Virus record (IMG/VR): IMGVR_UViG_3300026549_001031
DNA from: a virus
Lineage: Duplodnaviria; Heunggongvirae; Uroviricota; Caudoviricetes
Reading direction: 5' to 3' (one strand)
DNA length: 64,000 nucleotides
The first letter of the stretch is position 1; each line of letters begins with the position of its first letter. Position numbers and translations under genes: made by a program. The notes below the pieces were generated by a model. It saw nothing but the letters and a program-made list of their open reading frames with translations, ran no database searches and was not told the DNA's origin. Of the stretch, positions 4,328 to 51,740 are shown piece by piece.

Positions 4328-5110
4328 ATGAGTTTCGACATGAGAAATAGGGCGCATGAGCAGTATAAACTTATGAATAACTATTATGGAAAAGAGATTA
4401 AAGCATGTGTAGAAAAGACTAAGGTTTACAGAACAAAGGTAGAGGGCATTGATGAAAGAGTTGGACAAGGTCACTTTAGCAGAGTTCAGCGATTAGAGGA
4501 CTGTGGTACATCTGATGCAATTATGTCATGCACTAAAGCTCAAGGCAGGGTTGCAGCACTGAACTTCGCATCATTTAAGAATCCTGGCGGTGGCTTTATG
4601 AATGGAAGTAAAGCACAGGAAGAGATGTTATGTCATGATTCATTCTTGTACAACGTCTTAGAAAAAGAGACCAACTTCTATGAGGAAAATAGGAGAGATG
4701 TGAATAGGGGAATGTATTACAATGCTGCACTATATTCACCTGATGTTACATTTGTTGAGGCAGACACACGTGGAATTAAGAGAGAAAAGGCATGTGATAT
4801 TATTACATGCGCAGCACCTAATTGGTCAGCAGCAAGTAAAAATGGTATTAGCATAAGTGAATGTAATAAGGCATTAAGAGAAAGAATTGAGTTTATTTTA
4901 GATGTGGCACAGGCTAATCATGTTGACACATTGATTTTAGGAGCATTTGGCTGTGGCGTATTTAAGAATGATCCTAGGGTTGTGATTGAAACATTTGAAA
5001 AGACACTAAATAAAGAGAAATACACCATCAGAGAAGTAATATATGCAGTACCTAATAAGAAGAGTGACAACTATAAGGCATTCGATGCATACTTGAGTAA
5101 GGAGGAATAG
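4328..5110 (+). CDS. TIGR02452/DUF2263 family macrodomain (bacterial-type PAR glycohydrolase)
   Basis: LNFASFKNPGGGF...AQEE, ITCAAPN and LILGAFGCGVFKN motifs. Confidence 0.9.
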   Translation: MSFDMRNRAHEQYKLMNNYYGKEIKACVEKTKVYRTKVEGIDERVGQGHFSRVQRLEDCGTSDAIMSCTKAQGRVAALNFASFKNPGGGFMNGSKAQEEMLCHDSFLYNVLEKETNFYEENRRDVNRGMYYNAALYSPDVTFVEADTRGIKREKACDIITCAAPNWSAASKNGISISECNKALRERIEFILDVAQANHVDTLILGAFGCGVFKNDPRVVIETFEKTLNKEKYTIREVIYAVPNKKSDNYKAFDAYLSKEE

Positions 5111-5475: not shown

Positions 5476-5504
5476 TTGACAAAATGAGCAAAATATGATA
5501 TAAT
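5476..5504 (+). promoter_or_regulatory. sigma-A-like promoter upstream of a 74-aa ORF and the array
   Basis: TTGACA-17nt-TATAAT with TG extension. Confidence 0.8.
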
Positions 5505-5803: not shown

Positions 5804-8800
5804 AATATATCAAGATAAATAATAAACATTGTCGCATCGGAGTGAATCCTTAAGCGGAATCAGTATTAGAATGTGAAAGCGTATCATAAAACGAAATAAA
5901 CATTAAGATATTAAAGTGTATCAAAGGCTTTGATAAGCATTAAGTCATTCGAGTGAATCAGTATTGGAATGTGAAGGCATATCATAAAACAAAATAAACA
6001 TTACGATATTAAAGTGTATCATAAAGGCAAATAAGAATTGGATTACGCAAGTGTATCAAAAAATCTTATAAGCATTGCAAATATAAAGTGAATCAATCTT
6101 GATAGAAATAGGTATTGGAAAAATAGAGTTAATCAATGAGAGTAATAGGCATTGTCACATTCGAGTGAATCATGAGGTACAATAAGCATTGGAAAATTTA
6201 AGTGAATCACGATGACAAATAAGCATTGAAAAAATTAAGTGAATCAAAAATGGTAATAAGCATTGGAAAGATCTAGTATATCAAAATCATTTATATACAT
6301 TGGAAAAATATAGTGTATCAAAAAGTTCAATAAGCATTAAAAGAAAAAAAAGTGAATCAGAGGAAAGGATAAACATTAGCCATGTCGAGTGTATCATAGG
6401 ACAGAATAAAAATTATGCTGGAACAGTATATGAAGTGAATCATACAGAAATAAACATGTGTCAGGGCAAGGAAATAAAATTACTATGTACAAGCGTGTTA
6501 AAATGTCATAATGATTAAGCATCAGTATGAAAACCAAGCGTATCAGAATAAATAATAAACATTAAAATCGCGGAGTGTGTCGTGATAACTAAGCATTAGA
6601 ATATCAGAATAAATAATAAACATTAAAGTCAGAGAGTGTGTCACTGGAGTCAAGAATCAATAAGACGGCAAAGCGTATCATCGTCCACTAATAACATTAA
6701 AATGGCAAAGTGTGTCAGAGCTGGAAAGCATAATTACAAATTTGCAGCGTATCAATAAAAAATAAGTCACATTAAATTATGTAAGTGAGTCATGTCAAAC
6801 GATCAGTATTATGGTGCGATAGCGTATCAATAGAAGAGATTAGAATTATAATGAGTGAGTGTATCATAGTGGGGAATAAACATTGAAAAAACAAAGTGTA
6901 TCAGCATTGGAAAAAAGTAGTGAGTCACAGTGTCTTACGAACATTAAGTTTAAATAGTGTATCAATTTAGTAAATAAACATCATAAGTGATGAGTGTGTC
7001 ATGGGCGAGGAGATTAAAATTATTATGTATAAGCGTGTCGCAGAATGTGAACAGCATTAAGTGTGTCGAGCGTATCAGGTTCAATAATTTACATTATAAG
7101 AAGTGAGTGTGTCAAACTGATTAAACATCAGTAGAAAAAATTAGCGTATCAGGTTCAATAATTTACATTGCAAGAAGTGAGTGTGTCAAAATGCATAAGC
7201 ATAATTAATGCTGGGTAACGTATCAAATCGAAGCATCAACATTGTTTCTATAAAGTGTGTCAGAGCGGATAAGCATAATCAAGTACAAGTAGCGTATCAT
7301 AAGTAACTATCAGCATTAAATGATATAAGTGAGTCATATTTGATGATCAGTATTAGAGAGCTGAAGTGTATCAATTGCTGTGATTAACATTAAAAGTTGC
7401 GAGTGGATCAGTTAAAAAAAATGAGAATTAAAATGATGAGTGCACCATAGGAGGGAATCAGCATTGATGTATTTGAGTGTACCAGAACAGTGATAGACAT
7501 TGAGGTTTTAGTGGGTCGTAGGAGGAAAATAAATATTATAGACGATTAGCGTATCACATCATAGTTATAAAAAATGAAATACATATCACAATCGTTAATC
7601 AACATTAACAAAAAATAGTGTATCGACAAAGAAGATAGAAATTATGCTATGAAAGTGTGTCAAGGGGAAATAAAAAATTAAGCTATAAAAGCGTATCATA
7701 AAAAAATAATAGACATTATACTAGAAAAGTGAATCATAGTAGATTTATCACTATTGCAATTGAAATTGAGATATGGAGTGAATCAGAATAGGGTTATGGG
7801 AAAGCAGTCAAAAGTATTATTAAGGGCACTAATGATTTTTGTAGGACTTGCCATATTTGAGTCAGTGCTTCAGAATAAAAATTGTTTAGCAGCTGGTTTA
7901 AGTATTACAGGATATTACATACTTATACTTGTTGTTTCCTACATTGCAGGAAAAGTAAGTAGAAAGAGAAATAAAAGAGATACACACCAAAGAGGTTGAA
8001 CATACATTAGAATAAAGAGTGTATCATAGATAAAAATATAATAGTAAGTCAAGCAAGTGGGTCATTCATTAAAATCAACATTTTAGAAGGCTAGCGGACC
8101 AGAAAGTAAAAGTAAGGGCAATAGATGTAAGTGTATCAACGAGTGCTGATTAGACATTATAGAAAATTAGTGGATCAAATGCTATAATAAATAACATTAG
8201 AGTTAAGTGTATCAATAGAAGCAATTAACATTAGAATACTGTAGTGGGTCATGTTATTAAATACAAATCTGAAGGACATAGCGTATCATCACAAAAAACT
8301 AACATTGTAAAGTGTAAGTGAATCGCAATAAAGGATAAGAATTAATTTGAGGTAGTGAATCAACAGTAACAATTAACATTGGTACAAAATAGTGTATCAG
8401 TTCGAGAATGGGTAGTGTGTCGTGGAGAGATATCAACATTGTTTATATTAGCGTATCAGGGCATGAAATTAACATTGTAATTAAATAATGTATCATATCA
8501 AAGCTATGAATCAGCATTGTTTTAGTTTAGTGTATCAAAAACGAAATTAACATTAAATTAATGAGTGTGTCAGATAAGAAAAGGTTAATTGAGTAGACAA
8601 AGCGTATCATTGTAGAGAATAAGCATTAAGATGTGGAGTGTATCATTAGTAATAACTAACATTTGTAAAGATAAGTGTACCAACGAAATCAATCGACATT
8701 AAGATAAATAAGTGAGTGTGTCATAAGGAGGTAATCAACATTAATGATAATAAGCGTATCAGAAAAGCAAAATTAACATTGCATTTATTTAGTGAATCAC

Positions 8801-10110
8801 AATAAAGAATAAGCATTATGCTATTTAAGTGAATCATAGGAGAAAATTGGCATTAAAAAACCTTAGTGAGTCATGTGAACCTATTAGCATCACTTACCTA
8901 AAGCGTACCTAAGAAAAAATTAGCATTATTTAATTCAAGTGGATCATAAGAGAAAATTAAAATCATTGCTCTCTAGTGAGTCACCATGATCAATAAACAA
9001 CACGTGAAATTAGCGTATCAAAGGTTGAAATCAACATTGATGTACTTTAGTGAGTCATAACCAACAATAAGCAGTTTCCCTATGCAGCGTATCAGAAAAT
9101 AAGATCAACATTGAAATTGATGAGTGAGTCATTATAGCCAATAAATAACATGGATAGATAGCGTATCAATGTCTGTTAGTAACATTACGACTGTGAAGTG
9201 TATCATATCTGGCGAATTAAAATTGTGGGCAGTAAGTGCATAAGTTCAGCGAAACAACGTTAGAAAGAATAAGTGAATCATTGACAAATGTAGTTTATCA
9301 AATAGAAAAATCAACATTAAATTTTATTAGTGTATCAATATAAAATGATAATATATCAGGATGGTTAATTAGCATTACAGATATTTAGTGCATCAACATA
9401 CGTTATTAAAATTGTGCGTGTAAAGTGTATCACCAGTATTCATAAAGATTAGCATATCAAAGTTCTAGAATACTATTATAAAATTGGGGTGAGCCATAAG
9501 AATAAACAAACATTATGTGACGTTAGCGTATCAGGTTTAATAATAAACATTGTAATAATTTAGTGAATCTTATCAGCAATCTGATTAGCATTAGGAGAAA
9601 AAAGTGTATCACAATATTTAACTAACGTTGAGAAATACGAGTGTATCACTTTAGCATATCAAACAAACAGAACAACATTAAGTAATAAGAGTGTGTCATT
9701 GGAAAAAATCGAGATCAACATATCAGAGCGTACCGATATATTGAATTGACATTGCATCTAGTGAGTGAATCGACATTGCAAACAAACATTATGTGACGTT
9801 AGTGGGTCACCTCCTTAAATATAAAATCATAGAAAATTAGCGTATCATTTTTGAAAATAAACATTGGTGGAAATTAGTGAGTCATTCTTTTTAATATAAA
9901 ATTAAAAAAGAATAACGTATCATTTGGTTGAATCAACATTGAGAAGAGTTAGTGAATCATAGTAAAAAATAAACAATACAAAGTATGAGTGCATCAATCA
10001 AAAAAATAAACATTTAGTGATGTGAGTGTATCATATCAGGCAATTTAAGTCATATAAATGTTTAGCATATCAAATGAGTATATCAACATTGTAATTATTA
10101 AAGTGTTTCG
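5804..10110 (+). repeat. TIGR-like dual-repeat guide RNA array (~37-nt units, roughly 100+ units)
   Basis: Period of 37 nt: edge repeat AG[T/C]G[T/A/G][A/G]TCA, ~9 variable nt, loop repeat AT[A/C]A[A/G]CA(TT[A/G]), ~9 variable nt; non-coding; unit ends covary; interrupted at ~7785-7995. Confidence 0.88.
7796..7999 (+). CDS. small 2-TM membrane protein inserted in the array
   Basis: Periodicity stops across ~7785-7995; ORF has two hydrophobic helices and a basic tail; weak SD. Confidence 0.5.
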   Translation: MGKQSKVLLRALMIFVGLAIFESVLQNKNCLAAGLSITGYYILILVVSYIAGKVSRKRNKRDTHQRG

Positions 10111-18608: not shown

Positions 18609-18736
18609 AATAAAGAGTAAGCAAGTGTTTAATGGACGACTACAAATAGTAAAATGTGGTCGTCCTATTTTTATGCTTAGAGATATAAGAAAGAAATAAT
18701 TATTTATTAAAATAATTGTTTAGGAGGAAAGTTAAA

Positions 18737-19825
18737 ATGCAGTATGATTTTAGTAAAATGCACTATCTTGACAAGAGATACAATTACAATATTGTAGTCA
18801 AGCCTAATACATTTAACAAGAACAGTGGAAAGGAGGTATTACAGTATGCAGTTGGGGCATTACTCTATATGCCTGCTTCAAATGATAAAGTAGCATCTCG
18901 AATTATTGCGGGACAGGCAGAACCATGGAAGTCAATCGTGCTTGACCTTGAAGATGCACTTGGAGATGATCTGGTAGGGTTTGGACAGAGAGCAATTGTT
19001 AAGACAGTCACTAAATTAGGTGATGCAATTAAGGATGGTAAACTTACAATTGATAATTTGCCTCTTATCTTTGTAAGAGTGAGAGAGCCTAAGCAGATTA
19101 AAGAGACACTTGAGATGCTGGGCGAGTATACACAGTACATAACAGGGTTTAACATTCCTAAATTTGATAAGACAACTTGTGATGAATACATCAAGGAGTT
19201 TGTCAGCGTCAGGAATGAAGTAAAGAGCAAGTATAAAACAGATTTGTACATTATGCCTATTATTGAGAACAAGAACACAATGTATAGACAGCTTAGAATG
19301 GATAATCTGTTATACATGAATGATAAGCTGCGAGCAATTCAGGATAGCGTACTCAACATTAGAGTTGGCGGTGCAGACTTCTGTAGTGTTTATGGAATCA
19401 GGAGAAGTATTACAGACGACATTTATGATATTGGTGTAGTACGTAGTGTACTTAATGACATTATGAATGTCTTTGGTAAAAGTTATATTGTCAGTGGTCC
19501 TGTATGGGAATACTTTGAAAATAAGGAGGATCCATCTGATGAGAGGTGGAGAGTAGGTTTACAGCATGAGTTATATGCTGATAGGTTGAATGGTTTCATT
19601 GGTAAAACAGTAATTCATCCTAGTCAAGTATTGGAAGTACAGTCAAGTTTAGTTGTGCACAAGGAAGATTATGATGATGCAATGAATATTATTGGAATGA
19701 ATGCAAACTTAACAGGGGTTAAAAAGAGTGCTGCAGGGAATAGGATGAATGAGGTCAAGACTCATTGGAACTGGGCACGTAAAATTGTTGGTTTAGCAAG
19801 TGTTTATGGTGTACGTGAAGATTAA
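18737..19825 (+). CDS. ter-associated HpcH/HpaI aldolase/citrate-lyase-like protein
   Basis: GALLYMPA, LDLEDA, NIRVGGADF, SGPVWEYF, GKTVIHPSQ and MNEVKTH. Confidence 0.85.
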   Translation: MQYDFSKMHYLDKRYNYNIVVKPNTFNKNSGKEVLQYAVGALLYMPASNDKVASRIIAGQAEPWKSIVLDLEDALGDDLVGFGQRAIVKTVTKLGDAIKDGKLTIDNLPLIFVRVREPKQIKETLEMLGEYTQYITGFNIPKFDKTTCDEYIKEFVSVRNEVKSKYKTDLYIMPIIENKNTMYRQLRMDNLLYMNDKLRAIQDSVLNIRVGGADFCSVYGIRRSITDDIYDIGVVRSVLNDIMNVFGKSYIVSGPVWEYFENKEDPSDERWRVGLQHELYADRLNGFIGKTVIHPSQVLEVQSSLVVHKEDYDDAMNIIGMNANLTGVKKSAAGNRMNEVKTHWNWARKIVGLASVYGVRED

Positions 19826-19869
19826 GTATGCATGATTTACTGAAAACCTTAACTAGTTATACAGTAAGG

Positions 19870-19898
19870 TTGACAAGAACAAAAATTTCAATTATAAT
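19870..19898 (+). promoter_or_regulatory. sigma-A-like promoter
   Basis: TTGACA-17nt-TATAAT. Confidence 0.75.
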
Positions 19899-19930
19899 AT
19901 AAATATAGTTAAGGTTGGAGGTAAATTGAT

Positions 19931-20617
19931 ATGTACGAGATTACAAAAGGATACAAGCAGGGAAGATCAGTATTATTTTATGACATTACAGATGTAATGA
20001 GTAAAGAGACACGAGAAAAAGTAGATAAGGATACAGTAGTTAAGTTAGCTGAAGCGGGAGAAGTGAAAGATACTAAAATTCAGTGGTGGCAGGGCAAGGC
20101 TATTGTGCGTAGTAATACTAAGTTTGACATTCTGAAGTTGAACGACAGCGGTGAGGTTGTAGGACAGGCACCAGTGGTTACGAGAAGTAGATCAGGTGTA
20201 AAAAGTGCAGCTCAGGTGTGCAAGGAGGTTTATGGCATGTATCCTCCTGAAAATAACATTGATGTTTCAGACAAGGCTACAGTGGTTGGTAGTATCAAGA
20301 CTAAAAGAAAGAGAAATGAAAAAGTGTTTGCAGGTTATGACATGGCAAATGTCAGAGAGGTACGCGAGAATAAACCTAATTTCAAGTTTGATAAAGACAG
20401 TACCATTGGAAATATGGTGCTTGACATGATCAAAGATTTTGGACTCAAGGATACAGAGACATACTATCAGCAGCTGGCTAAAAAAGTGGACATGAACAAA
20501 AAGGTTGAGACTACAAACAAAGCAATGGTTGCTGGCATTCAGAGAAGTGTAGCAACATATTTGATGAACATGGCTAACCTTGAGACAAGGGAGACTTATC
20601 TGAAATACACAGTGTAG
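19931..20617 (+). CDS. hypothetical protein (N-terminal repeated phage domain)
   Basis: N-terminus resembles the repeat in 3604-4161. Confidence 0.6.
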   Translation: MYEITKGYKQGRSVLFYDITDVMSKETREKVDKDTVVKLAEAGEVKDTKIQWWQGKAIVRSNTKFDILKLNDSGEVVGQAPVVTRSRSGVKSAAQVCKEVYGMYPPENNIDVSDKATVVGSIKTKRKRNEKVFAGYDMANVREVRENKPNFKFDKDSTIGNMVLDMIKDFGLKDTETYYQQLAKKVDMNKKVETTNKAMVAGIQRSVATYLMNMANLETRETYLKYTV

Positions 20618-20740
20618 TTTAAGGATATACACTGTCAATTACAAAAGAGATGCATATCAATTAAATAAGTAATACGTATAAAACTACTTCGAAAATAAAA
20701 GAAGTAGTTTTATTTTTATTTATAAATAAAGGAGAGAATT

Positions 20741-22147
20741 ATGAATAAGCATATGTTTAGGTGTTTAGGCATATTGACAGTTTTTACATTACTTGTAGGA
20801 ATGTTTGATAGCACTAAAATGGAGGTTTTTGCAGATAGTTATAATGTGGTTACACTGGGGGCAGATCTGTCTGAAGAGCAGAAAAACTTGATGTTCGATT
20901 ACTTTGGGGTAGATACAGATAATGTTCAGGTAATTACAGTAACAAATAAGGAAGAGCATGAGCTATTGGATGATGTAGCAACTAAGCAACAGATTGGTAC
21001 ACATACGTTTAGTTGTTCATACATAGAGCCAACAGATGAGGGTGGCATTCATATTAAGACAGCTAATTTGAATTGGGTCACCTGTGATATGATTAGAAAT
21101 GCATTGGTAACAAGTGGCATTACAGATTGTAATGTCGTTTGTGCAGCACCTATTGAGGTAAGTGGTACAGGTGCACTGACAGGCATATTTAAAGCATATG
21201 AGACAGTCAGTGGTGAGGAGATGGACGGTACAAAGAAAGAGCTTGCATCTGAAGAATTAGTTGAGACAGCTGAATTAGCAGATGACATTGGTCAGGATGA
21301 AGCAAGCAATATAATGAATGATGTTAAGCAGGATGTAATCAAAGATTCCGTTACAGATGATGATATAATCAAGGGTTTGGTAAAGAGCGCAGCTAAAACA
21401 CAGGGGGTTGAACTTAAGGATGAACAGATAGACAGTCTTGTGACATTCTTTAGTAAAATTGGTGCTTGTGATTATAACTTTGATGCAATTAAGAGTGCAT
21501 ATGATAGTTTAGATAAGACAGCAGCTGATGCACTAGAGAGTGCTAAAGAGACAGCTGGATTTTTAGGTAAAATCAGAGATTTCTTTAGTGACTTATGGGC
21601 TAAAATAAACGGTTCATATGAGGAAAAACAAGAGGCAGCTAAAGAAGAGCAGAAGCAAAAGAGTTTAGGTATATTGAACAATGTAAAGGATGATGTGCTT
21701 GGAGCCAAAGCAGTTGTAACAGATACAGATGGTGGAGCTAGCAGTACTGAAGAAAATAATACAAAAGAGAATAAAGAGAGTACACATAAGGAACATTGGT
21801 ATGACTTCATATTAACATGGTTTAATGCAGGAAACAATGATACAGACAGCGATAAAAAAGAGACACAAACAGAGATAAAGAGGGAGCAGACACCTAGGAA
21901 AAAGAGTAATAACAGTTCACAAAGTGAAAACTCACAGGTTGAGGAAAATTCACAGAGTGATAAGAACAGCTTAGATAAAGCAGGCAGTCAATCAAATAGC
22001 GATGAGAGCTCAAATAAAAATGAGAATGACAAGGGAAACTTAGGGTATGTCACTTATGATGTAGAAAATGCAAATAAAGAGAGCACAGGGCAGGATAACA
22101 ATAGTAAGGGGTCACAGGATAATTCGTTTGACAGCTTGGTGCAATAG
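20741..22147 (+). CDS. secreted DUF1002-domain protein
   Basis: Signal peptide; VTLGADL and EVSGTGALTGIFKAYE motifs; low-complexity tail. Confidence 0.8.
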   Translation: MNKHMFRCLGILTVFTLLVGMFDSTKMEVFADSYNVVTLGADLSEEQKNLMFDYFGVDTDNVQVITVTNKEEHELLDDVATKQQIGTHTFSCSYIEPTDEGGIHIKTANLNWVTCDMIRNALVTSGITDCNVVCAAPIEVSGTGALTGIFKAYETVSGEEMDGTKKELASEELVETAELADDIGQDEASNIMNDVKQDVIKDSVTDDDIIKGLVKSAAKTQGVELKDEQIDSLVTFFSKIGACDYNFDAIKSAYDSLDKTAADALESAKETAGFLGKIRDFFSDLWAKINGSYEEKQEAAKEEQKQKSLGILNNVKDDVLGAKAVVTDTDGGASSTEENNTKENKESTHKEHWYDFILTWFNAGNNDTDSDKKETQTEIKREQTPRKKSNNSSQSENSQVEENSQSDKNSLDKAGSQSNSDESSNKNENDKGNLGYVTYDVENANKESTGQDNNSKGSQDNSFDSLVQ

Positions 22148-22274
22148 CAGTGGAACTTAAATATGGTCTGAACTATACCTTTTAGATGCTGAACTATGAC
22201 TATAATATATGCATTGGTTTCAAATTAAAGTAGTTTTAATAAATAAAAAATTAAGTTAATTGGAGGTCAGTGTT

Positions 22275-22886
22275 ATGGCATTAGTAATGAAGATAGTAGG
22301 CATTAGTAACAAAAAGAACGGCATGAATTATTCTGTGGCTGATGGCAGTAGAGAACCTGATGGATCATTAAGAACAATGCAGGTCAACAAGTATCAGATT
22401 GTAAGTGCAGTACTTGGAGGCAATAACATTTGTAATGTTAGGCTTAACAAGAAAGGGTTTGGCATTAAGCAGGATGATAACAGAGTGAAATATGTGCAGG
22501 TAGACTTTGATTCTAATACAAGGGTACTTGTAAATAATTACATTGCACAGAGAAAAGCTGCTGAGGAGGCAGTTAGAGAAGAGAGTAGACGTAGAAAAGC
22601 TGAAGAAGAGAAGAAACAAAGGATCAATGTGCATGTAGAAATCAATGGTAACAAGGGGCAGAGTACAGCAATACATTATCATGGAGATTACTACTCTAGT
22701 CCTGAGAGATTATGCAAGAAGTTCAATGCAGATCCACATAAGTTTATTGAGTTATACAATAAAGGATACTCTATTGATGAGGCACTTGGACTTAAGAAAT
22801 TAAGACCTATCGAGGAAGTAAGAAAGACAGCAGCTAGAAGAGCAAAGTTACTTGATAGTATGTCAGCTAGTCGTGGCGAATGTTAG
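22275..22886 (+). CDS. hypothetical protein
   Basis: ORF with GGAGG SD; N-terminal repeated-domain-like segment. Confidence 0.6.
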   Translation: MALVMKIVGISNKKNGMNYSVADGSREPDGSLRTMQVNKYQIVSAVLGGNNICNVRLNKKGFGIKQDDNRVKYVQVDFDSNTRVLVNNYIAQRKAAEEAVREESRRRKAEEEKKQRINVHVEINGNKGQSTAIHYHGDYYSSPERLCKKFNADPHKFIELYNKGYSIDEALGLKKLRPIEEVRKTAARRAKLLDSMSASRGEC

Positions 22887-22906
22887 TTTAGTTAGGAGGT
22901 ATACAC

Positions 22907-23620
22907 ATGTTAAGGGTTTGGGTTACAAATAAATTACTTGACAACAATACAGGAAAACTTGTGGGCTATGTAATTAGCGATGTTGATACAGGTCAAACAA
23001 TGAGAGTTGCAAAGGATCAGTTAAAGATGGCAGTAATCAATAAGCAGTGTGAGTGTATGAATATGACACTTACATGTGATGGTAGACTTATTGGAAAAGC
23101 ATCTAGGTTACCTGCAAACGCAGCTAATATGGAGTTTGCTAGCAGAAATGCAGTGGCTAATACTAGCATACCTGTGATTGATGCAGTATTGACTAATGGT
23201 AGAGGAATTGGAGCAGTACGAATTAAAGATGCAACAGGTAATTCAAGCTTTATGAGTGGATTGATTGCAAAGAATAGTTTAGCATCTGGCACTATTGTAG
23301 GAGATGTGCAAAATGTTCCTCGCAGATCATATAGTAAGTTTAGAAATACCTTTATCAATAATTGCAAATGCAGTGATAAAGATTTTGCAGTCAGCAAAGT
23401 TGGAAGTTCACACAGTACAGATTATGTAGTACAGGGACCATTTGATGCTATTAGCAGTGTAATAGTTGAGAATGGCTTACTCTCAAACAAGATTAAGCCT
23501 GTTGAATATTTAAGTGCAGACACATTAAGGGTTCAGTGCTTAACTGGAGTAAATGATGTACGTAAAGCAGTTAAGGATGCATTTAGAAAAGCAGAGGCAG
23601 CCAAAAAGAAAAGGGCTTAA
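22907..23620 (+). CDS. hypothetical protein (N-terminal repeated phage domain)
   Basis: GKLVGYVISD...MRVAKDQL...N pattern; SD. Confidence 0.6.
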   Translation: MLRVWVTNKLLDNNTGKLVGYVISDVDTGQTMRVAKDQLKMAVINKQCECMNMTLTCDGRLIGKASRLPANAANMEFASRNAVANTSIPVIDAVLTNGRGIGAVRIKDATGNSSFMSGLIAKNSLASGTIVGDVQNVPRRSYSKFRNTFINNCKCSDKDFAVSKVGSSHSTDYVVQGPFDAISSVIVENGLLSNKIKPVEYLSADTLRVQCLTGVNDVRKAVKDAFRKAEAAKKKRA

Positions 23621-23764
23621 GACACTAGATTAGGTTTAGCTAGTATGTGGAGATTGAGACAGGGCAGTAATTGGGGCATACATCAAAAAATTGGTGTATG
23701 TCCTAATTTTATGCTTGTGTATATATGAAAATATATTTATTTTTATTTTAAGTGAGGTAAGATT

Positions 23765-24877
23765 ATGCATTGTGTGTTGTATTTCAATCAGTGGTTTTCA
23801 TCTATAGGAAATATTATAAAAAAGATTAAGGAGACAAATCCTGGTGTTTATGTAATTGCATCTTCTAAAAATCCTGATCATGTGTATAAAGCCTTTGTAG
23901 ACAAGTTTATTGTGGAAGAGGACTATGCAAATGTAGATGATTACATTGATTTTGTAGTAAATACTTGTAAGGAAAATAAGGTAAACTTATTCTTTGTGAA
24001 AGCTAAGCAGTTAGAAATTGCAAAGAACAAGGATAAGTTTAATGAGATAGGGACAGGGCTTGTGCTTGAAAATTATGATACATTGGAGAAATTAAGTAGC
24101 AAGGCAGATGTTTATGCTAGACTTGGGGAGGTAGACTTCCTTAAATGGCTGATACCTGACTATTACATTTCGAACAAATATCATAACACTAATCATAGTT
24201 GGGTGTGGCAATCTATAGAAAATGAAACATTTTGTTTCAAATATGATAGTGATGAGGGTGGCATGTCATTTAGGAGAGTGAGAGACATTAGCTTAAATAT
24301 AGATACACTTAGAGATCAGCAATCTAACATAGTGAGTAAGGAACAAGCAATTAATATGATTAAGAATGCAAGCAGGGAACAATTGAACAAAGTATTGTTT
24401 ATGGAGATACTTGATTCACCTGAAATCAGCGTTGATTGCTATAATAGTAAGAAGGGGTTCATAGCAGTATGTAGATGTAAGGAGCAAAGAAAACAGAGAG
24501 TATTCTATAACGAACTATTGTATTACATATGCAAGGAGATTGCTAATACATATGAGTTTAAGGGTCCTTTCAATGTGCAGTTTAGGTTTAAGCATGGGTC
24601 AGATACAGACAGCTTAACAAATATCAGGTTGCTCGAGATAAATCCTAGAATGTCAGGTGGTTTATACTATCTTGCAGCAGTAGGTTTGGATATTGCACAG
24701 GCAGTATTAAAGGATGCATTAGATGAAAAGGGAATAGGCACTGATATAAGAGATTATAATATTGATGAGTTTAGAAATTTCAAGGATAAATATGTGACAT
24801 ACATTGAACATGCAGTAGTGTTGCAGGGTAAAAATAGAGAAATAGACTTAGTGGAGGTTAGGAACAGTGGAAAATAA
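23765..24877 (+). CDS. ATP-grasp protein (ter-associated type)
   Basis: YFNQWFS N-terminus, GGMSFR, PEISVDC, FNVQFR and LLEINPRMSGG. Confidence 0.85.
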   Translation: MHCVLYFNQWFSSIGNIIKKIKETNPGVYVIASSKNPDHVYKAFVDKFIVEEDYANVDDYIDFVVNTCKENKVNLFFVKAKQLEIAKNKDKFNEIGTGLVLENYDTLEKLSSKADVYARLGEVDFLKWLIPDYYISNKYHNTNHSWVWQSIENETFCFKYDSDEGGMSFRRVRDISLNIDTLRDQQSNIVSKEQAINMIKNASREQLNKVLFMEILDSPEISVDCYNSKKGFIAVCRCKEQRKQRVFYNELLYYICKEIANTYEFKGPFNVQFRFKHGSDTDSLTNIRLLEINPRMSGGLYYLAAVGLDIAQAVLKDALDEKGIGTDIRDYNIDEFRNFKDKYVTYIEHAVVLQGKNREIDLVEVRNSGK

Positions 24878-25469
24878 ACAGAGACAGCAGGAAAATGAAA
24901 ACATGCAGGATACGGAAGAGGTGAGGCATAATAAGAAAAAAGTAAGTACAGCTCAATTAATAGGCAGGGAACTTATGAAATTTGTACTTGCAATAGCAAT
25001 TACAGCTGGTCTAACATTTTTGTCAATAAGATACATTGCTCAAATTGTTGACGTGTCTGGTGATAGTATGAATAACACTTTGCATGATGGGCAGACATTA
25101 TGGATAAATAAGTTTGACAAACAATATGATAGGTTTGACATTATAGTGTTTAGACATGGTGCATCAGTAGATGATGATGGATATGCAATTGGGGATGAGA
25201 ATCTTATAAAAAGAGTAATTGGACTTCCTGGAGAGACAGTCAGGATTGATGAAAAAGGCAGAATATACATCAATGGTGATGAGCTCAACGAGAACTATGG
25301 AAAAGATACCATTGATGATCCTGGTCGAGCAGTTAAAGAAGTAAAATTAGCAGATGATGAATACTTTGTACTTGGAGATAACAGAAATGACAGTTTAGAT
25401 TCAAGATATGAAGTAGTTGGGAACATTAAGAAGTCTGATATAATTGGAAAATTATTTAAGAAGTACTAG
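24867..25469 (+). CDS. lepB: signal peptidase I
   Basis: TM segment, VSGDSM (catalytic Ser), IKRVIGLPGE (catalytic Lys) and GDNRNDSLDSR. Confidence 0.92.
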   Translation: MENKQRQQENENMQDTEEVRHNKKKVSTAQLIGRELMKFVLAIAITAGLTFLSIRYIAQIVDVSGDSMNNTLHDGQTLWINKFDKQYDRFDIIVFRHGASVDDDGYAIGDENLIKRVIGLPGETVRIDEKGRIYINGDELNENYGKDTIDDPGRAVKEVKLADDEYFVLGDNRNDSLDSRYEVVGNIKKSDIIGKLFKKY

Positions 25470-25517
25470 TATTTGTAAATTTCAATAAAAAGTGATATAA
25501 TATAGGAGAAAGCTAAA

Positions 25518-26786
25518 ATGAGAAATGATGATGTAAGAAAGTATGTTAATAACATTGTAGAAAGGGAGGGCATGAACATAGGGAAGTTTATCACAGTCGA
25601 GAAAAGGGATAAAAACACTAAGAGAGATTTTCTATTCGTTAACAAAGAGCAGTGTAAGCATATACCTTGTAAGGCAAGTGACATGATTGATATGTGTAAA
25701 GCACTTGGAGAAGGAGTTGCAAGCATACTCAAAGAAAGAAAATCAAAGAGTTGTTTAGTTATAGGCTTTGCAGAGACAGCAACAGCAATTGGACAGATTG
25801 TGGCAGACACATTAGATTTTGGCGTTAAGCAGTGTGCAGTAAAATACACCGTGACTACAAGAGAAGATGTACAAGGAACAGAAAACTTACTAACATTCGA
25901 GGAAGAGCATAGTCATGCAACAACTCAAAAACTGCTTTGTGTAGAGGGTGTTACAGACAATGATATTTCTGATTATGACACAGTAGTGTTTGTAGATGAT
26001 GAATTAACTACGGGAAATACAATCATAAACTTTATAAAAGCATTAAAGTCAAAGAGTAAGACAGAATTTAATGGACACTTCGTTGTAGCTAGTGTCTGTA
26101 ATTGGCAGGATAAGGCATCAAAAAAGAGATTTGAAGGACATGGAATTGAAACAGTTGCATTGTTTAGTGGTGAGATTGCAGACGTAAATGCAAAAGTCAT
26201 TGGAGAATACAGTGAAAACAGTGGTTTGATGGAGTATGTACCTAGTAGTTCAAATGTCACATACCTTGACTTGAGAGATACAGAGTACAAAGAAATGATG
26301 TTTGAGTCATCTAGAGTAGTAGATGATATCATGTACAAAAGAGAGTATGCAGTGGAAACATGTGATAAAATACTTGATCTGCTTGGAGTAGACATTAGAA
26401 ATAATGGATATAAACATATAAGAGTGATTGGTACAGAGGAGTTTATGTATGTACCTATTAAACTTGCACTTGGACTTGAGAAAACAGTAAAGGGCGGTGT
26501 TGATGTAGTATGTCAGGCAACTACAAGAAGTAGTATTGCAGTGTCAAAAGAGCATAGTAGCTTTAAGGATAGTATTGTATGCAAGTCAAAAGTGAGCAGC
26601 GTGTACAGTAAAGATAGAAATACATACATATACAATTTAGTACATAGAGCAAAAGGTGGCAGCACAGAGAGAGAGCAGGAGTTAGTACTTCTGATAACAG
26701 ATAGTAGCAATGAGAAGCAGGTAAAGAAGCTTAGCGAAGAATTGAGTGGACTTACAAATAGCAAGGTTTATGCAATATTAGTTTAA
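25518..26786 (+). CDS. ter-associated phosphoribosyltransferase (PRTase plus TRSP-type C-terminus)
   Basis: IGFAETATAIG, FEEEHSHAT, FVDDELTTG, GTEEFMY and ATTRS. Confidence 0.85.
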   Translation: MRNDDVRKYVNNIVEREGMNIGKFITVEKRDKNTKRDFLFVNKEQCKHIPCKASDMIDMCKALGEGVASILKERKSKSCLVIGFAETATAIGQIVADTLDFGVKQCAVKYTVTTREDVQGTENLLTFEEEHSHATTQKLLCVEGVTDNDISDYDTVVFVDDELTTGNTIINFIKALKSKSKTEFNGHFVVASVCNWQDKASKKRFEGHGIETVALFSGEIADVNAKVIGEYSENSGLMEYVPSSSNVTYLDLRDTEYKEMMFESSRVVDDIMYKREYAVETCDKILDLLGVDIRNNGYKHIRVIGTEEFMYVPIKLALGLEKTVKGGVDVVCQATTRSSIAVSKEHSSFKDSIVCKSKVSSVYSKDRNTYIYNLVHRAKGGSTEREQELVLLITDSSNEKQVKKLSEELSGLTNSKVYAILV

Positions 26787-26803
26787 TTAGGAGGACAGTT
26801 AAA

Positions 26804-28009
26804 ATGAGACAGTTTGGCATGATTACAGAGGATGGAACATGTAACAAGAAGTTGATGGACATGGATAAGTTGGTTAAGACATCCTACAAGAAAGAGGACG
26901 TGGTGGTTTTACTGAAAAACCTATCTGATTGTATGAAAGAACTTCCAACAGAAGAGAGGGAAAAACTTATTCAGAGCGGTGTACATTACAGTGAAATGTT
27001 ACCTCAGGAGAAGGCACCTTCAGCAGAATATGAAGCATTATATGAAAAAGCACTTGCAAACAAGAAATTGGAAATTGCAAATGATATTGCAGTTGTGTCA
27101 GAGATGATCCTGGATGAGTCGTTGTATAAAGAGATGGGGCATGTGCCTGTAATTATTAGTTTGGCACGAGCAGGTTTACCTGTAGGTATCCTCATTAAGA
27201 GATATCTTAAATACAAGTACAATATTGATTGTCCTCACTATGGAATTTCAATTATTCGTGATAAAGGAATCGACAAGAATGCTATGGAGTACATCTATAA
27301 AACAGAATGCATCGAGCATGGCAATTCAGTTATGAACATGTTCTTTGTTGATGGTTGGACAGGAAAAGGTGTAATTGATCAGCAGGTTAAAGAGGCAGTT
27401 GCAGACTTGGCAAAAGAGGACTCTAAGAAATGGGGCATGTTGAGTGATGAGTTGTACGTGCTGGCAGATCCTGCTAACATTCTGGAGGGTTGTGGTACAC
27501 ATGAGGATTACTTATTACCTAGTGCTTGCTTGAACAGTACAGTAAGTGGTCTGACCAGTAGAACAATTCTGAATCAGCATATCAATGTTGAGGATGGAGA
27601 CTTTCATGGTGCTGTTTACTTCAACAAGTTTGAGGATATCGACAAGAGTAATGAGTTTATCGACACTGTTTCAAATGAGTTCCCTCATACAGAAGAAGTA
27701 ACAGTGGACAAAATTAACAGTATGAAACCTGAAGAGGGCTGGACAGGCATGAGTATTGTGCAGGACATTTGTAAGTTAATGAATGTACCTGACTATAAAA
27801 AAGTTAAGCCTGGTATTGGAGAAACAACAAGAGTGTTGTTGCGTAGAGTACCTTGGAAAGTACTTATCAATAAGGACATTAGTGAGGATGACCCTGACAT
27901 TCAGCATATTTTGGTACTTTGTAGAGAAAAGAAGATTCCTACAATGAGATGGGATTTAGGACATTATAAAGTGTGTGGAATCATTAAGGAATTGAGTGCA
28001 GATGCTTAA
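26804..28009 (+). CDS. ter-associated StiP-like protein (PRTase-like plus PELOTA-type domain)
   Basis: HYSEMLP, SLARAG, FVDGWTGKG, PSACLNSTVSGL and KPGIGETTRVLLRRVP. Confidence 0.85.
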   Translation: MRQFGMITEDGTCNKKLMDMDKLVKTSYKKEDVVVLLKNLSDCMKELPTEEREKLIQSGVHYSEMLPQEKAPSAEYEALYEKALANKKLEIANDIAVVSEMILDESLYKEMGHVPVIISLARAGLPVGILIKRYLKYKYNIDCPHYGISIIRDKGIDKNAMEYIYKTECIEHGNSVMNMFFVDGWTGKGVIDQQVKEAVADLAKEDSKKWGMLSDELYVLADPANILEGCGTHEDYLLPSACLNSTVSGLTSRTILNQHINVEDGDFHGAVYFNKFEDIDKSNEFIDTVSNEFPHTEEVTVDKINSMKPEEGWTGMSIVQDICKLMNVPDYKKVKPGIGETTRVLLRRVPWKVLINKDISEDDPDIQHILVLCREKKIPTMRWDLGHYKVCGIIKELSADA

Positions 28010-28061
28010 GGTTTAAAGGTTTGGACATAAAAGACATAAAGGACTAGGAGCAGTTGGTAGA

Positions 28062-28628
28062 ATGATGGTTAAGAACAACATTAAATATGTGCTTGAGCAG
28101 TATCAAGGGAATTTAAGCTCACCTGTAATTGTTTATATTGTCACTAAAGATAATGGTATATACATTGGTCATAAGGCAAAGGACATTGCAGGTGGATATG
28201 ATGTAACATGGTGTTGCAAAATGGAGCATCAGGATAAGTATGACAGACATGAAAGTATTGTTTCTATACTTAAGGAAGTAGGGAAGGATAACAGTACAAA
28301 AGTAGTTTATTCAGGTCAGAACAAGGGTAAGCAGGGAGATGATGTACCTGCTTTACTCTATAACATAGAGGGTTCAGTTCACAAGCATAACAGAAAAATG
28401 TATGAGCAGGTTGTACTTGAGAATTTTAATAGAGAAGCATGTGCTAGACTTGACGAGGCAATGATGAGTATGAGAGGGCCTCAGTTAGTGGAAGAGCAGA
28501 GAAAGAATGTGAGATCAAAATTAAAAGAGAGTGAGATCACTGAATTACATGGAATCAACAGTAAATTAGAAGCAGCTGGCATGGTAGTTGAGGGTAAAGA
28601 GAATTTAGATATCAAGGTAGACTTTTAG
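28062..28628 (+). CDS. hypothetical protein
   Basis: ORF with SD. Confidence 0.55.
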   Translation: MMVKNNIKYVLEQYQGNLSSPVIVYIVTKDNGIYIGHKAKDIAGGYDVTWCCKMEHQDKYDRHESIVSILKEVGKDNSTKVVYSGQNKGKQGDDVPALLYNIEGSVHKHNRKMYEQVVLENFNREACARLDEAMMSMRGPQLVEEQRKNVRSKLKESEITELHGINSKLEAAGMVVEGKENLDIKVDF

Positions 28629-28643
28629 AGCAGGAGAAATAAC

Positions 28644-29444
28644 ATGAAGAAACATATATTATATGCATCTGACTTGGATAGAACACTCATTTTTTCAAAA
28701 AGATTCATAGATGAAAGTAATTTTAAGGGTGCTTATGAACTTGTAGAGACAAAGACAAACGAGGATGGTAGCATTGAGAAAATTTCATATATGTCACCAT
28801 CTGTTAAAGAGGGCATTCAGGAATTGAATAGCAATGATCAGATTACATTTGTACCTGTGACAAGCAGAAGCCTGGAGGAGTATAACAGAGTCAAATTAGG
28901 GTTTGTACCTGAATATGCAATAGTAGCAAATGGAGGACTTATTATTCATAATGGAGAGATCGTTAAAGAGTGGAGTGAGTACATTAGAAAGAATGTGAGT
29001 CTACCTAGGTTAATGCAATTAAGCATGGAATTATCAGAGTTTAAGAGCTTAGATCCTGATAGGATGCCTAGGTTAATTGATGGATGTTACTTATTTACAA
29101 AAACAGTTCATCATCAGAAATTTGATGAGGAGGCAGATGCTATTTCAGTAGCATATGAGGATATTGACTTTACACGTCAGGGTAATAAATGTTACCTTAT
29201 TCCTAAATGCTTTTCTAAACAGGTGGCATTAAGGTGGTTGTGGAACAAGTTAAACAAACCTTATATCATTGCATCTGGGGATAGTCAGTTAGATTTACCT
29301 ATGTTGGCACTGGCTAACAAGGCTATCATTCCTGATCATGGTGCTTTAATTAAAGAGGGCATTGTGACAGACGCTAGGACAGTGTCAGGTGGAGTGGAGA
29401 GTCCTTTGAGAACAATTGAGTTTATCAAGGGATTTTTAGAATAG
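28644..29444 (+). CDS. HAD-superfamily hydrolase (ter-associated type)
   Basis: ASDLDRTL, PVTSR, ANGG and ASGDSQLD. Confidence 0.88.
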   Translation: MKKHILYASDLDRTLIFSKRFIDESNFKGAYELVETKTNEDGSIEKISYMSPSVKEGIQELNSNDQITFVPVTSRSLEEYNRVKLGFVPEYAIVANGGLIIHNGEIVKEWSEYIRKNVSLPRLMQLSMELSEFKSLDPDRMPRLIDGCYLFTKTVHHQKFDEEADAISVAYEDIDFTRQGNKCYLIPKCFSKQVALRWLWNKLNKPYIIASGDSQLDLPMLALANKAIIPDHGALIKEGIVTDARTVSGGVESPLRTIEFIKGFLE

Positions 29445-29513
29445 ACATATACTTGTAAAAATCAAGTTTTTGTGATATAATATATAAGAAAAGTTAAGAA
29501 AGGAGTAAATAAT

Positions 29514-29792
29514 ATGATCGACTATGAGGAAAGATTAGAGCGTCAGCTCAACGAAAGATTAGCAGAGGCCAAGAAAGGATATGCAGAAGACTGTGAGGCA
29601 AGATATGCAGAAAGATTCGCAGAGGCCAAGGAAAGATTTGAGAGAGAGGCTAAGGCAGTTGGTATGGTAGAAGTAACCAAGGACATGAATAGGTCACTGA
29701 CATATAACAAGATCATTGAAACTTTAGCAAGGAAGTACAACTGGGATGCTGAGTTAGCATCAAAAATGCATGAGCATTTTGATAATAAATAG
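29514..29792 (+). CDS. small helical protein with internal EAK repeat
   Basis: Own promoter (29453-29481) and SD. Confidence 0.6.
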   Translation: MIDYEERLERQLNERLAEAKKGYAEDCEARYAERFAEAKERFEREAKAVGMVEVTKDMNRSLTYNKIIETLARKYNWDAELASKMHEHFDNK

Positions 29793-29833
29793 GAGGCAAG
29801 ATTTAAGACAGGCATAAGAAGGGATAGGTCAAT

Positions 29834-30211
29834 ATGGAATATAGAATGAAACAGTCATACTTAAGTAACTACTTTTTAAGTGACACTGTAGAAAATGAGA
29901 GATACCTTGTAGAGGACATCACGAATCATATGTTCAATGCATGGAATGACAAATTGGAGGTCATGCTTAGAATTTGTGACTACTATACTTTTATGTATAG
30001 GTTTTATGAGGATGGCTGCATTGTTCTTCAGATGGCATGTGAAAATACAAAGGACTCAGAGACAGAACGGGTTGGACATTCCGATGATACTCATTTTGAA
30101 TATGAGTCATTAGATGAAATGTTGAAGGACTGGTGCAAGAGGTTAAAGGACAGTGAAGCATCTGCATTTGCAGAAGAGATAGACTTCATTGAAAATATGA
30201 AAGCAGCCTAG
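29834..30211 (+). CDS. hypothetical protein
   Basis: ORF. Confidence 0.55.
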   Translation: MEYRMKQSYLSNYFLSDTVENERYLVEDITNHMFNAWNDKLEVMLRICDYYTFMYRFYEDGCIVLQMACENTKDSETERVGHSDDTHFEYESLDEMLKDWCKRLKDSEASAFAEEIDFIENMKAA

Positions 30212-30252
30212 CAACAAAAGTGTTGCAGTAGTAAATAGGAGCATGCAGGGCA

Positions 30253-32343
30253 ATGGTTAGTTTAGGACAGGATTCAGAAAATAAACAGTGTAGTTTAGAG
30301 AATATCATTGTCGATGATGTTAACACTTCTAATTTGGAGTTAATGAAGCAGTGGTATTCAAAAGCTACAGTGTATATTGACAAGAGGTTTGAAATTCCTG
30401 CATCGAAAAGTGTAGTTGTTACTAGTAGAAGTGCTAGCATGCACAAGATACTAGATAAGATTTCTAAGGTAGACCTTGGAAATGAGTCACAGACAGAGAA
30501 TTTCAGACTAAAGACACGAAATTGGTGTATAGGACAGTTCAGGGAGTTATTCAAGAAATTGGATAATGGGGAGGATGCAGTATTGTTTATTGACAGTACT
30601 CCTTCAAAACATGAGTGTACATACATCAAATGGTTAGTGGACATAGGTGTTAAAGTTTGTATCATATCAGATAAAGATGTTGGACTTATAGATGGGTTTA
30701 AAGTAAGTAAGTCAGGAACACATGAGCATCTTGATTACAAGAAAGGCACTCAAGTTGAGAAAGAGAATACATCTGTTAGTGTGGTTAAACAGGAGCATCA
30801 TATTCATACACTTGATGAGGCAGAAGAAGCAATATGTGAAAATTTAGGTACAATCAAGCTAATTATCAGTGGTGTTACTAAATATAGAGATACAATTGAT
30901 AATTTTTATGGTAAAATGTACAAAATTGGTACACAAGATGGAAATTACTTGTTTGAGCATGGTTTTGGAAATGTTACATTGGAAGAAACGAACTCAATGC
31001 CTAGATTTAACATTGAGAAGCATGATTACATAGTCAGTACCCTCTGTATGTACTTAAAAAATAAGGAATTTGCAGACAAGCTAAAAAGTGTGTTTGATCA
31101 GGGTGAATTAAAGGCAGACACAGGAAGTAGATTGTATAACAAAGTAGTTTATGTAGTTTGCACGTTAAACAGAATGGAATCATTGTCAAGTGGAAACTGT
31201 ACAGTGGTTTATTATGGGGCACCTACTAAAAAAGATGAGATAGTCCTTAGTATTCTTGGTATGACACGGAATGTAGGTGTGGTTGTACTTAAGTCTGATA
31301 AGAGTAAGCAGTTCATTATGAAAGATGAGCTGGATAGAGTATTTCAGACATTTGAACTTGAGGGCACAGCAGAGCAGTTTGAGATGCCACATGTGGATAA
31401 AAGAGAGGCACCTGGAACAATGGCAGCTGGGGCAGCTCAGAGAGTGGCAGAGACATTATATAATGGTGATACACTCGGAATGTACAGACCTGGAATGTTT
31501 GTCACAGCAGAGTCAGTTTTATTCAGAACAGCATTTGAAGAAATTGAACTCTGGATTGGTAAGGATGTATATTTAAGACCTGGCTTTGAAGGAAGTTTCG
31601 ACAGATGTAAAATGCCTTGTATGTTTAAGGTGATTGATGGTGTAAATGGAAATGTCTCTGACTATTTGAGAAAGATCAAGAGTTATGTAGGAAGAAAGAC
31701 ATTATTTGTAAAGCATGCATGTGACTTAAAAAACAGTTTATGTAGCTCAACACCTAGAATGAATATTATGCATGGTACAGATGTGAATGGTACAAAGGCA
31801 TCTGATCAATTTGCATTCTTTAAGTCAGGTAAGCTTGATAAAGAAAGAATCAAGAAAGGCATAAATTACAGTTATGGTTTTATGTCTAACACTAAGCAGG
31901 ATTTCTTACTTGATAAGATTGAAGAGATGCTTAATGATAAAACAATAGACATATCTAGTTTTGGAGATAGGCAGGAGTATGAGAATTTTGTACTTGGTGC
32001 ATTGTTAAATTTGGACATTGAAGCTTTAAGAACAATACAGGGTATGGAATTTTATAAATCTAATCCTAACATAATACTTCTGTTAACTGATGAGAATACA
32101 TTGACAATAAAAGATGTAGTCTTATTAAAATTTATGTGGTCATTGGGATATGATATTTTGATCTATGTACCTACATGCTATACATCAATAGAAAATTATG
32201 TAACAAATGATTTCATGTATGAGAAGCATGTAATTGGTGAAGCTACATATGATATTCAGGTTTCACTACTTGATACACTTAGTAACCTTGCACCTGAAAA
32301 AGAGAAAAAGACAGGTTGGTTTAATAAATTGTTTAGAAAGTAA
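30253..32343 (+). CDS. YceG-like ter-associated protein
   Basis: TMAAGA...L...G.YRP, RTAFEEI..W...RPGF and GYDILIYVPTCY..IE patterns; directly upstream of TelA as in yceG-yceH. Confidence 0.7.
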   Translation: MVSLGQDSENKQCSLENIIVDDVNTSNLELMKQWYSKATVYIDKRFEIPASKSVVVTSRSASMHKILDKISKVDLGNESQTENFRLKTRNWCIGQFRELFKKLDNGEDAVLFIDSTPSKHECTYIKWLVDIGVKVCIISDKDVGLIDGFKVSKSGTHEHLDYKKGTQVEKENTSVSVVKQEHHIHTLDEAEEAICENLGTIKLIISGVTKYRDTIDNFYGKMYKIGTQDGNYLFEHGFGNVTLEETNSMPRFNIEKHDYIVSTLCMYLKNKEFADKLKSVFDQGELKADTGSRLYNKVVYVVCTLNRMESLSSGNCTVVYYGAPTKKDEIVLSILGMTRNVGVVVLKSDKSKQFIMKDELDRVFQTFELEGTAEQFEMPHVDKREAPGTMAAGAAQRVAETLYNGDTLGMYRPGMFVTAESVLFRTAFEEIELWIGKDVYLRPGFEGSFDRCKMPCMFKVIDGVNGNVSDYLRKIKSYVGRKTLFVKHACDLKNSLCSSTPRMNIMHGTDVNGTKASDQFAFFKSGKLDKERIKKGINYSYGFMSNTKQDFLLDKIEEMLNDKTIDISSFGDRQEYENFVLGALLNLDIEALRTIQGMEFYKSNPNIILLLTDENTLTIKDVVLLKFMWSLGYDILIYVPTCYTSIENYVTNDFMYEKHVIGEATYDIQVSLLDTLSNLAPEKEKKTGWFNKLFRK

Positions 32344-32354
32344 AGGAGAAAGAC

Positions 32355-33569
32355 ATGGCAATTAAGAAAGGAACAGACACAGGCACAGATATGGCAGGTT
32401 CAGCAGTAACAGTTGTTGATGCACCATCAGATAATGGAGCAGTTTCATTATCAAAATCAGCTATTGAGCAACAGAGAGAAACATATGACCTTGCTAATTC
32501 AAGAGAAGCATATAAGCAGGAGATTATTGCAAGTGGAGAAATTGACAGACTTACATCAACAATTGATGTTACAAACACTACAAGTATTGTGGAGTTTGGA
32601 AAAGAGCCTGCAACAAAGATGGCTGGTTTGGCAGACCAGGTGTTATCAAAATACAACAGTACAGCAGTATCTGATACATCTAAAATGGTTGAGTCTCTGC
32701 TTGGAGTTATGAAGAAGATTGACATTCAGGAAATCAAGAGTCTTGATGAATTAAAAGAAGAGCATAAGAAGAAAGGATTCTTTGGCAGGTTTAAGGAATC
32801 AGCTCAGGAAAAACTGGATAAGCTTGTTGGTAAGTACAAGGGCGTAGCAAATGAGATGGAGCAGATTTGTACACAGCTTTCTGTTTATGAGCAGCAGATC
32901 AAAGATTCAAATAAAGACATTGAAAAAATGTATGAAGCAGCTAAGGAAGAGTATAAGCAGTTAGTAGCAGTTGTGATGGCAGCTGAGCAGGCTTGCAAGG
33001 AAATCGAGGAATACAAAGATCAGCTTGCATCAGAGGTAGAGACAGATGCATCTGGAGAAAAACAGTTTGAACTTCAGAATGTACAACAGGCATTAACACT
33101 TATGCAGCAGAGAACAGCTGACTTACGTGGGGCAGAGACAGTAGCATTACAGAGTATTCCTACATTCAAGATTCAGGAGTATACAAATGCTAACTTAGCA
33201 AGAAAAGTAAACAGTGCATTTATTGTAACAGTACCTGCATTTAAGACAGCACTTGTTAACAGTGTGATTGCTAAACAGCAGTCAATTCAGGCACAGGGTT
33301 TAAGTTTATTAGATGAAGCAACATCACAGGTAATCAGAATGAACGCTGATAATGCAATTGGACAGTTACAGCAGAGTCAAAGATTAGCTAATACAAGCGC
33401 AATTAAGGCAGCTGACATTGAGTATTCATGGAATACAATTATGAATGGAATCACACAGTACAAAGAGATGGAAAAGCAGTATGCTGAAATTCGTAAGGAC
33501 GAGGCTAAGAGAATTGAGGATGCAAATGCAAGGTATTTGCAGAGCATTTCAAATGGCACAGGCATCTAA
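32355..33569 (+). CDS. toxic anion resistance protein (TelA/YceH family)
   Basis: SIVEFG, coiled coil, ALQSIP, NLARKVNSAFIVTVP. Confidence 0.88.
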   Translation: MAIKKGTDTGTDMAGSAVTVVDAPSDNGAVSLSKSAIEQQRETYDLANSREAYKQEIIASGEIDRLTSTIDVTNTTSIVEFGKEPATKMAGLADQVLSKYNSTAVSDTSKMVESLLGVMKKIDIQEIKSLDELKEEHKKKGFFGRFKESAQEKLDKLVGKYKGVANEMEQICTQLSVYEQQIKDSNKDIEKMYEAAKEEYKQLVAVVMAAEQACKEIEEYKDQLASEVETDASGEKQFELQNVQQALTLMQQRTADLRGAETVALQSIPTFKIQEYTNANLARKVNSAFIVTVPAFKTALVNSVIAKQQSIQAQGLSLLDEATSQVIRMNADNAIGQLQQSQRLANTSAIKAADIEYSWNTIMNGITQYKEMEKQYAEIRKDEAKRIEDANARYLQSISNGTGI

Positions 33570-51723: not shown

Positions 51724-51740
51724 AAATTAAGGAGGTCATT

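Follow-up and report, generated by a model that had tools for sequence, protein, structure and literature searches.

Dual-repeat TIGR-Tas systems such as FpTIGR-TasA, TaTIGR-TasR (PDB 9MTY) and SpTIGR-TasH (PMC12045711) combine a solo Nop-domain Tas protein with an adjacent array, usually of 5-15 units of 36 nt, in which an edge repeat, a 9-nt spacer A, a loop repeat and a 9-nt spacer B follow one another in that order, and an intrinsic terminator is typical of them. In such systems box D opens the edge repeat and box C closes it, so that the two can pair; the arrays are processed to RNAs of one unit each, which Tas binds, and the two spacers of a guide target opposite strands of DNA. According to the published rule, the boxes covary between edge and loop (PMC12045711). 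In addition, Faure et al. 2025 (PMC12045711) described an extra edge pair, formed between different edge repeats, which is "always supported by covariation"; in the known systems this pair varies between loci. SpTasH has been reported to use Y289 and H296 for the processing of its guides (PMC13421893), and TasA proteins to repress transcription (bioRxiv 10.64898/2026.09.09.750476). TIGRFinder (Xu et al., bioRxiv 10.64898/2026.09.09.750476) sets the phase of the edge, and so distinguishes edges from loops, by the complementarity of the first and last bases of the 4-nt edge gap.

A 37-nt dual-repeat array and its departures from described systems

We analyzed a stretch of 64,000 nucleotides of viral DNA (the window), which belongs to a jumbo phage: its proteins recur on contigs 392-550 kb long, including one with a human gut label. 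Flanking genes and a pattern scan led to further assemblies of the phage and to relatives (L numbers below). Three features of the window are needed here:

5804-10110, + strand: 37-nt dual-repeat TIGR-type array, comprising no fewer than 94 regular units besides others that are deleted or fused
7796-7999, + strand: small hydrophobic ORF interrupting the array, with the same insert in L006 and L023
57790-59043, + strand: TasA-type Nop-domain gene of 417 aa, without N-terminal nuclease, probable effector, 47.7 kb from the array

The array spans 4.3 kb with a period of 37 nt. A motif-and-spacing parser returned 90 regular units of 34-42 nt, 67 of them exactly 37 nt and four of them 36 nt long, and a second parse, in which both columns tested below for covariation were neutralised, returned 94 units. 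The 37-nt unit length was likewise found in L022 and L023. [quoted passage not shown] The loop repeat starts with A-T and ends with T-T/C-R, its first A being invariant in 297/297 cases.

The order of elements, the box D- and box C-like ends and the solo Nop-domain Tas protein are common to this locus and the described dual-repeat systems. The boxes, AG and TCA, have diverged but retain the ability to pair, here as G-U. In contrast to the described systems, the units are 37 nt long with a 10-nt loop, they are far more numerous, the tas gene is remote instead of adjacent (no array was found within 10 kb of it), and the extra pair is polymorphic inside one array. The loop boxes have diverged from those of the edge, with only the first A and part of box C matching, and no intrinsic terminator was found on the + strand after 10110. 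Since strict membership fails on unit length, loop boxes, tas adjacency and terminator, the array was filed as a variant, which works like a dual-repeat TIGR-TasA system.

Covariation between the two ends of each unit

The first-pass annotation of this DNA had claimed that the second base of each unit (A or G) covaries with the penultimate one (T or C), and that the two bases pair in a folded RNA. The stretch and the units that bear most directly on this claim are the following:

6713-9917, + strand: stretch covered by that annotation, 69 regular units, of which 45 are A-T, 22 G-C, 2 G-T and 0 A-C at position 2 and the penultimate base (Fisher p=5e-16)
5845-5881, + strand: A-C mismatch unit, the second of the array, whose mismatch is shared by four related phage assemblies (L006, L020, L021 and L022)
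9492-9528, + strand: G-C unit, with loop and spacer B in common with the A-T unit at 9768
9768-9804, + strand: A-T sister of the 9492 unit, a compensated switch between sisters

The five units quoted in support of the claim (6713-6749, 7110-7146, 7258-7294, 9492-9528 and 9768-9804) read exactly as described, and the covariation was confirmed both in that stretch and in the whole array, where the 90 units comprised 63 A-T, 23 G-C, 2 G-T and 2 A-C combinations (Fisher p=5e-17). The exact 37-mers alone (n=67) gave p=2e-12, and the neutral parse of 94 units gave A-T/G-C/G-T/A-C counts of 66/24/2/2. When mutual information was computed over all aligned units, as had been proposed as a check, columns 2:36 ranked first among 666 column pairs (permutation z=37; runner-up 9.7). 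In a 42-unit subset, none of 500 shuffles equalled the pairing of the real units, and scores dropped strongly when the register was slid. Loop position 16 showed no covariation with position 21 or 22. The earlier statement that the exceptions are mostly G-T, with a single A-C case, did not hold for the array as a whole, which contains two G-T units (6923 and 7332) and two A-C units (5845 and 10029); three of these four are G-C in relatives. The unit at 5845-5881, near the array start, is a conserved one that is perhaps unprocessed or regulatory.

The odds ratio between position 2 and the penultimate base was 362 at a lag of 0, 0.07 at +/-1 and about 3 at +/-2 (p=0.07). A link that is strong within a unit, negative between adjacent units and weak two units away implies a register of one unit. 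Likewise, the two bases were complementary inside one edge in 65/90 cases and across the unit in 88/90, so that the cross-unit geometry is evident from the sequence alone. The TIGRFinder rule scores both bases within one edge, whereas here the cross-unit complementarity is the higher of the two. As TIGRFinder seeds on 4-bp gaps and was applied to arrays around tas loci, we infer that it might miss a remote array whose loop gap is 5 nt.

The pattern was replicated in the phage L023, whose 89 units comprised 60 A-T, 27 G-C, 1 G-T and 1 A-C; among the 49 units of L023 that were unlike any seen before, the covariation remained significant (p=3e-12). After collapsing 383 unique units from all assemblies into 240 families, the covariation gave p=3e-38, although pooled counts of this kind are partly dependent, since units descend from one another.

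Shared descent could in principle account for the pattern if one G-C founder had been copied as a block from R2 to Y36, with no current selection for pairing. A tree of unit interiors inferred 16 and 20 changes but only two supported independent pairs, and because this formal tree gave no clear answer, some weight was left on ancestry. Moreover, the loops of G-C units are somewhat distinct and more degenerate (2.1 vs 0.8 mismatches to the consensus; p=9e-5), T follows C-ending edges in 78/84 cases, as if origins had been few, and only A-T units make up the blocks that have expanded recently in L020 and L022. However, halves are reshuffled through the loop repeat (24 shared-half pairs), which would erode the link, and yet A-C combinations stay at about 2%. 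In three spacer families, of which 9492/9768 is the best case, both ends switch between sister units that have one identical spacer in common. Many different loops, and three different bases at the first position, occur among the G-C units. In addition, the lag-2 correlation lies within what avoidance between neighbouring units predicts (see below), which speaks against duplication of a 74-nt dimer, and the co-inherited states are exactly Watson-Crick and located at the published pair. Ancestry without pairing is thus an unlikely explanation, and we favour selection for pairing in each unit. Among orthologous units, G-C <-> G-T flips were observed in five families, and A-C was involved in only two.

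Taken as a whole, the covariation of the array ends is real, highly significant and largely explained by the published TIGR structure; the pairing of position 2 with the penultimate base is well supported and matches that structure (PMC12045711). The covarying pair is therefore one already published (Faure et al. 2025), and the main value of the array is confirmatory. The array also offers a natural experiment, with two closing-pair states among hundreds of units and pairing across the unit rather than inside the edge, and a set of ready-made native substrates for testing the published speculation that edge pairs govern guide maturation. In view of its 37-nt unit length, the G-U box pair, the decay of the loop boxes and the remoteness of TasA, annotation tools and array designs need to accommodate a wider range of guides.

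Strand, processing and the candidate Tas effector

Two features upstream of the array bear on its transcription:

5476-5504, + strand: perfect sigma-70-type promoter (12/12, extended -10), kept in L022 and L023
5536-5763, + strand: ORF of 74 aa with no family match, between promoter and array

The first-pass annotation had also concluded that the + strand is transcribed, pointing to G-T wobbles among the exceptions. The conclusion is probably right, but the wobble argument failed: the asymmetry was not significant (G-T vs A-C 2:2 in the window and 8:5 in pooled unit families; p=0.58), such exceptions do not decide the strand, and both kinds arise by single transitions. The + strand is favoured by other observations. 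Positions 3:35 are able to pair on this strand in 382/383 units, and they are mostly U-G (344 units, next to 21 C-G and 17 U-A), which would be C-A on the other strand. The promoter at 5476-5504, the probable start of the array transcript, points into the array, and the arrays of homologs sit on the strand of their tas gene.

The gene at 57790-59043 was assigned to the TasA type because its alignment runs from residue 4 with the post-nuclease part of TasR. Its sequence matched TasR 9MTY (E=4.5e-9) and TasH (E=2e-8), more strongly as a profile, and the ten top matches of its predicted fold were all TasH and TasR chains. Two TasA homologs with 46-48% identity, P0005 (L013) and P0038 (L015), are directly followed on the same strand by 36-nt dual-repeat arrays with edges AATG|TATCA. 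These arrays resemble the 37-nt array in a near-identical edge repeat with the same boxes and an A-T extra pair, but differ from it in that they adjoin tas, have units of 36 nt and a canonical 9-nt loop ending in CCA, form a box pair that is mostly U-A, and keep the extra pair almost invariant. The shared edge repeat ties the 37-nt array to the TasA clade by homology. For two other TasA homologs, no nearby array was present in the DNA examined. A second tas gene may lie elsewhere in the genome of about 400 kb. Scans of viral contigs with TasA, the 74-aa ORF and the unit pattern gave no matches. In the alignment of the processing dyad, TasA Y384 corresponds to SpTasH Y289 and M391 to H296, with an invariant H394 three residues further on, and self-processing of guides by TasA appears plausible from these residues.

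It is also conceivable that the array yields functional small RNAs for a protein other than TasA, e.g., one from the co-oriented methylase-helicase-Zn-ribbon block. This idea is supported by the unusual loop boxes, by the lack of a terminator separating the array from the genes downstream of it, and by a gene order that is also that of L022 and L023. Nevertheless, the more distant phage L024 has the helicase and Zn-ribbon gene with no array within 10 kb, and the edge repeats are nearly those of arrays adjoining TasA homologs, which makes a partner other than TasA very improbable.

Regarding processing, the proposal that it takes place inside the edge repeat is well supported, but the exact bond is not: from the covariation, the cut can be placed only at one of three bonds, those leading from Y36 to the next R2 (the Y-G-N-R gap), and the exact 5+4 split of the edge repeat is an assumption. 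RNAalifold predicted no pairs on unit RNA; hence R2-Y36 is not a free-standing fold and would need the Tas protein, and the absence of a fold in naked RNA is expected for two isolated pairs formed only on protein. The missing fold would also suit satellite-like DNA, or a repeat bound by protein at the DNA level with no RNA role, as would the failure to find spacer targets, since no matches above shuffled pairs were obtained in roughly 240 kb of DNA from the phage itself and from related loci. Such repeats, on the other hand, would hardly contain two variable 9-mers of fixed length per unit and complementary covariation 34 nt apart on one strand, and the conserved promoter and the Tas gene in the same genome argue against them as well. 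We give this possibility almost no credence; a functional guide RNA, as originally proposed, is well supported and agrees with the published TIGR structure (PMC12045711).

The explanation that we consider very probable is that of a 37-nt TIGR variant served by a remote TasA. The promoter at 5476 would drive transcription of the array on the + strand, and a dimer of the remote TasA would bind each unit, so that box C in the 5' half of an edge repeat (NRUCA) meets box D in the 3' half of the following one (AGYG). Two pairs would then form: the box C/D pair U3-G35, which is a wobble in this array, and the extra edge pair R2-Y36. A cut between Y36 and the next R2 would release dual-spacer guides of about 37 nt. 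Selection would keep the R2-Y36 pairing in each unit, with G-U as a tolerated intermediate between A-U and G-C. Loaded TasA would most likely bind DNA and repress transcription without cutting, and by analogy with other TasA proteins such repression is the likeliest output of the system. In this explanation, the covariation, the register, the replication in other phages, the Tas homolog and the arrays of its homologs were computed here, pair geometry and repressor activity come from the literature, and we infer transcription, processing, action in trans and targets.

Neighbouring units, array growth and surrounding genes

Where a unit ends with C, the following unit hardly ever has G at position 2, both in the window (5804-10110) and in L023 (3382-7371), T being the base that nearly always follows. 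Neighbouring G-C units were observed once in the window vs 5.9 expected among regular units (p=0.005) and once in L023 vs 8.7 expected (p=5e-5). C and G occurred in the same edge in only 4/387 unique edges, three of which represent one orthologous site and the fourth of which precedes a deleted unit. Duplication of a 74-nt dimer was rejected as the cause, given that lag-2 G-G counts equalled the expectation from avoidance only (p=0.27-0.36), and so was avoidance of a restriction site or DNA word, given that outside the array the 5-mer occurs about as often as expected (32 vs 33.6).

In the CUUG tetraloop, a C-G pair forms around a two-base loop (PMC10401711). By analogy, the avoidance may arise from an intra-edge C-G pair that competes with pairing across the unit. 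When all G-C units were pooled, their loops were more decayed (p=5e-11), which may reflect either greater age or compensation by the G-C pair. Tentatively, and with more doubt than confidence, we suggest a second, undescribed TIGR design rule, exposed here because A-U and G-C closing pairs are mixed in one array, by which an uncut edge with C and G could mimic a loop repeat and block processing, while G-C closure may rescue decayed loops. If true, rule and rescue together would account for the choice of the right register by a symmetric Tas dimer on a remotely encoded array of 37-nt units.

The array also contains short units, 20-27 nt long and with a single spacer (6899-6922, 8395-8417, 9276-9295 and 9428-9454), several of them kept in other strains, and chimeric units from recombination through the loop repeat were found in related assemblies (L006 5069 and L008 472). 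The hydrophobic ORF insert at 7796-7999 was not seen in L022. L020 and L022 have units in common with the window at both ends and in internal blocks; blocks of new units, nearly all A-T and with consensus loops, differ among the three. Array growth seems to be internal and not at one end.

Concerning the homologous loci, TasA homologs adjoin TerD genes in L012, L013 and L017 and NAD-salvage genes in L012-L014. At L015 11250-15200, the 36-nt TIGR array beside the TasA homolog is split by an IS605/TnpB element and continues as degenerate sub-arrays. The 232-aa minus-strand gene called at L013 11271-11969, which overlaps the TIGR array, is probably not a real gene.

In the window, the region upstream of the array encodes a Tpt1/KptA RNA 2'-phosphotransferase and a PARG of the microbial type (1319-1897 and 4328-5110), together with a tRNA at 2243-2315, which was the only hit of an Rfam scan. 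A tellurite/stress-type cluster at 18716-33569 and 50830-55556 comprises three TerD genes, TelA, StiP, PRTase, ATP-grasp, YceG and AIM24. Finally, a P-type cation ATPase (35180-39011) is present as two ORFs around an ORF of 240 aa (37430-38152), which looks like an HNH-type endonuclease by eye and possibly marks an intron.
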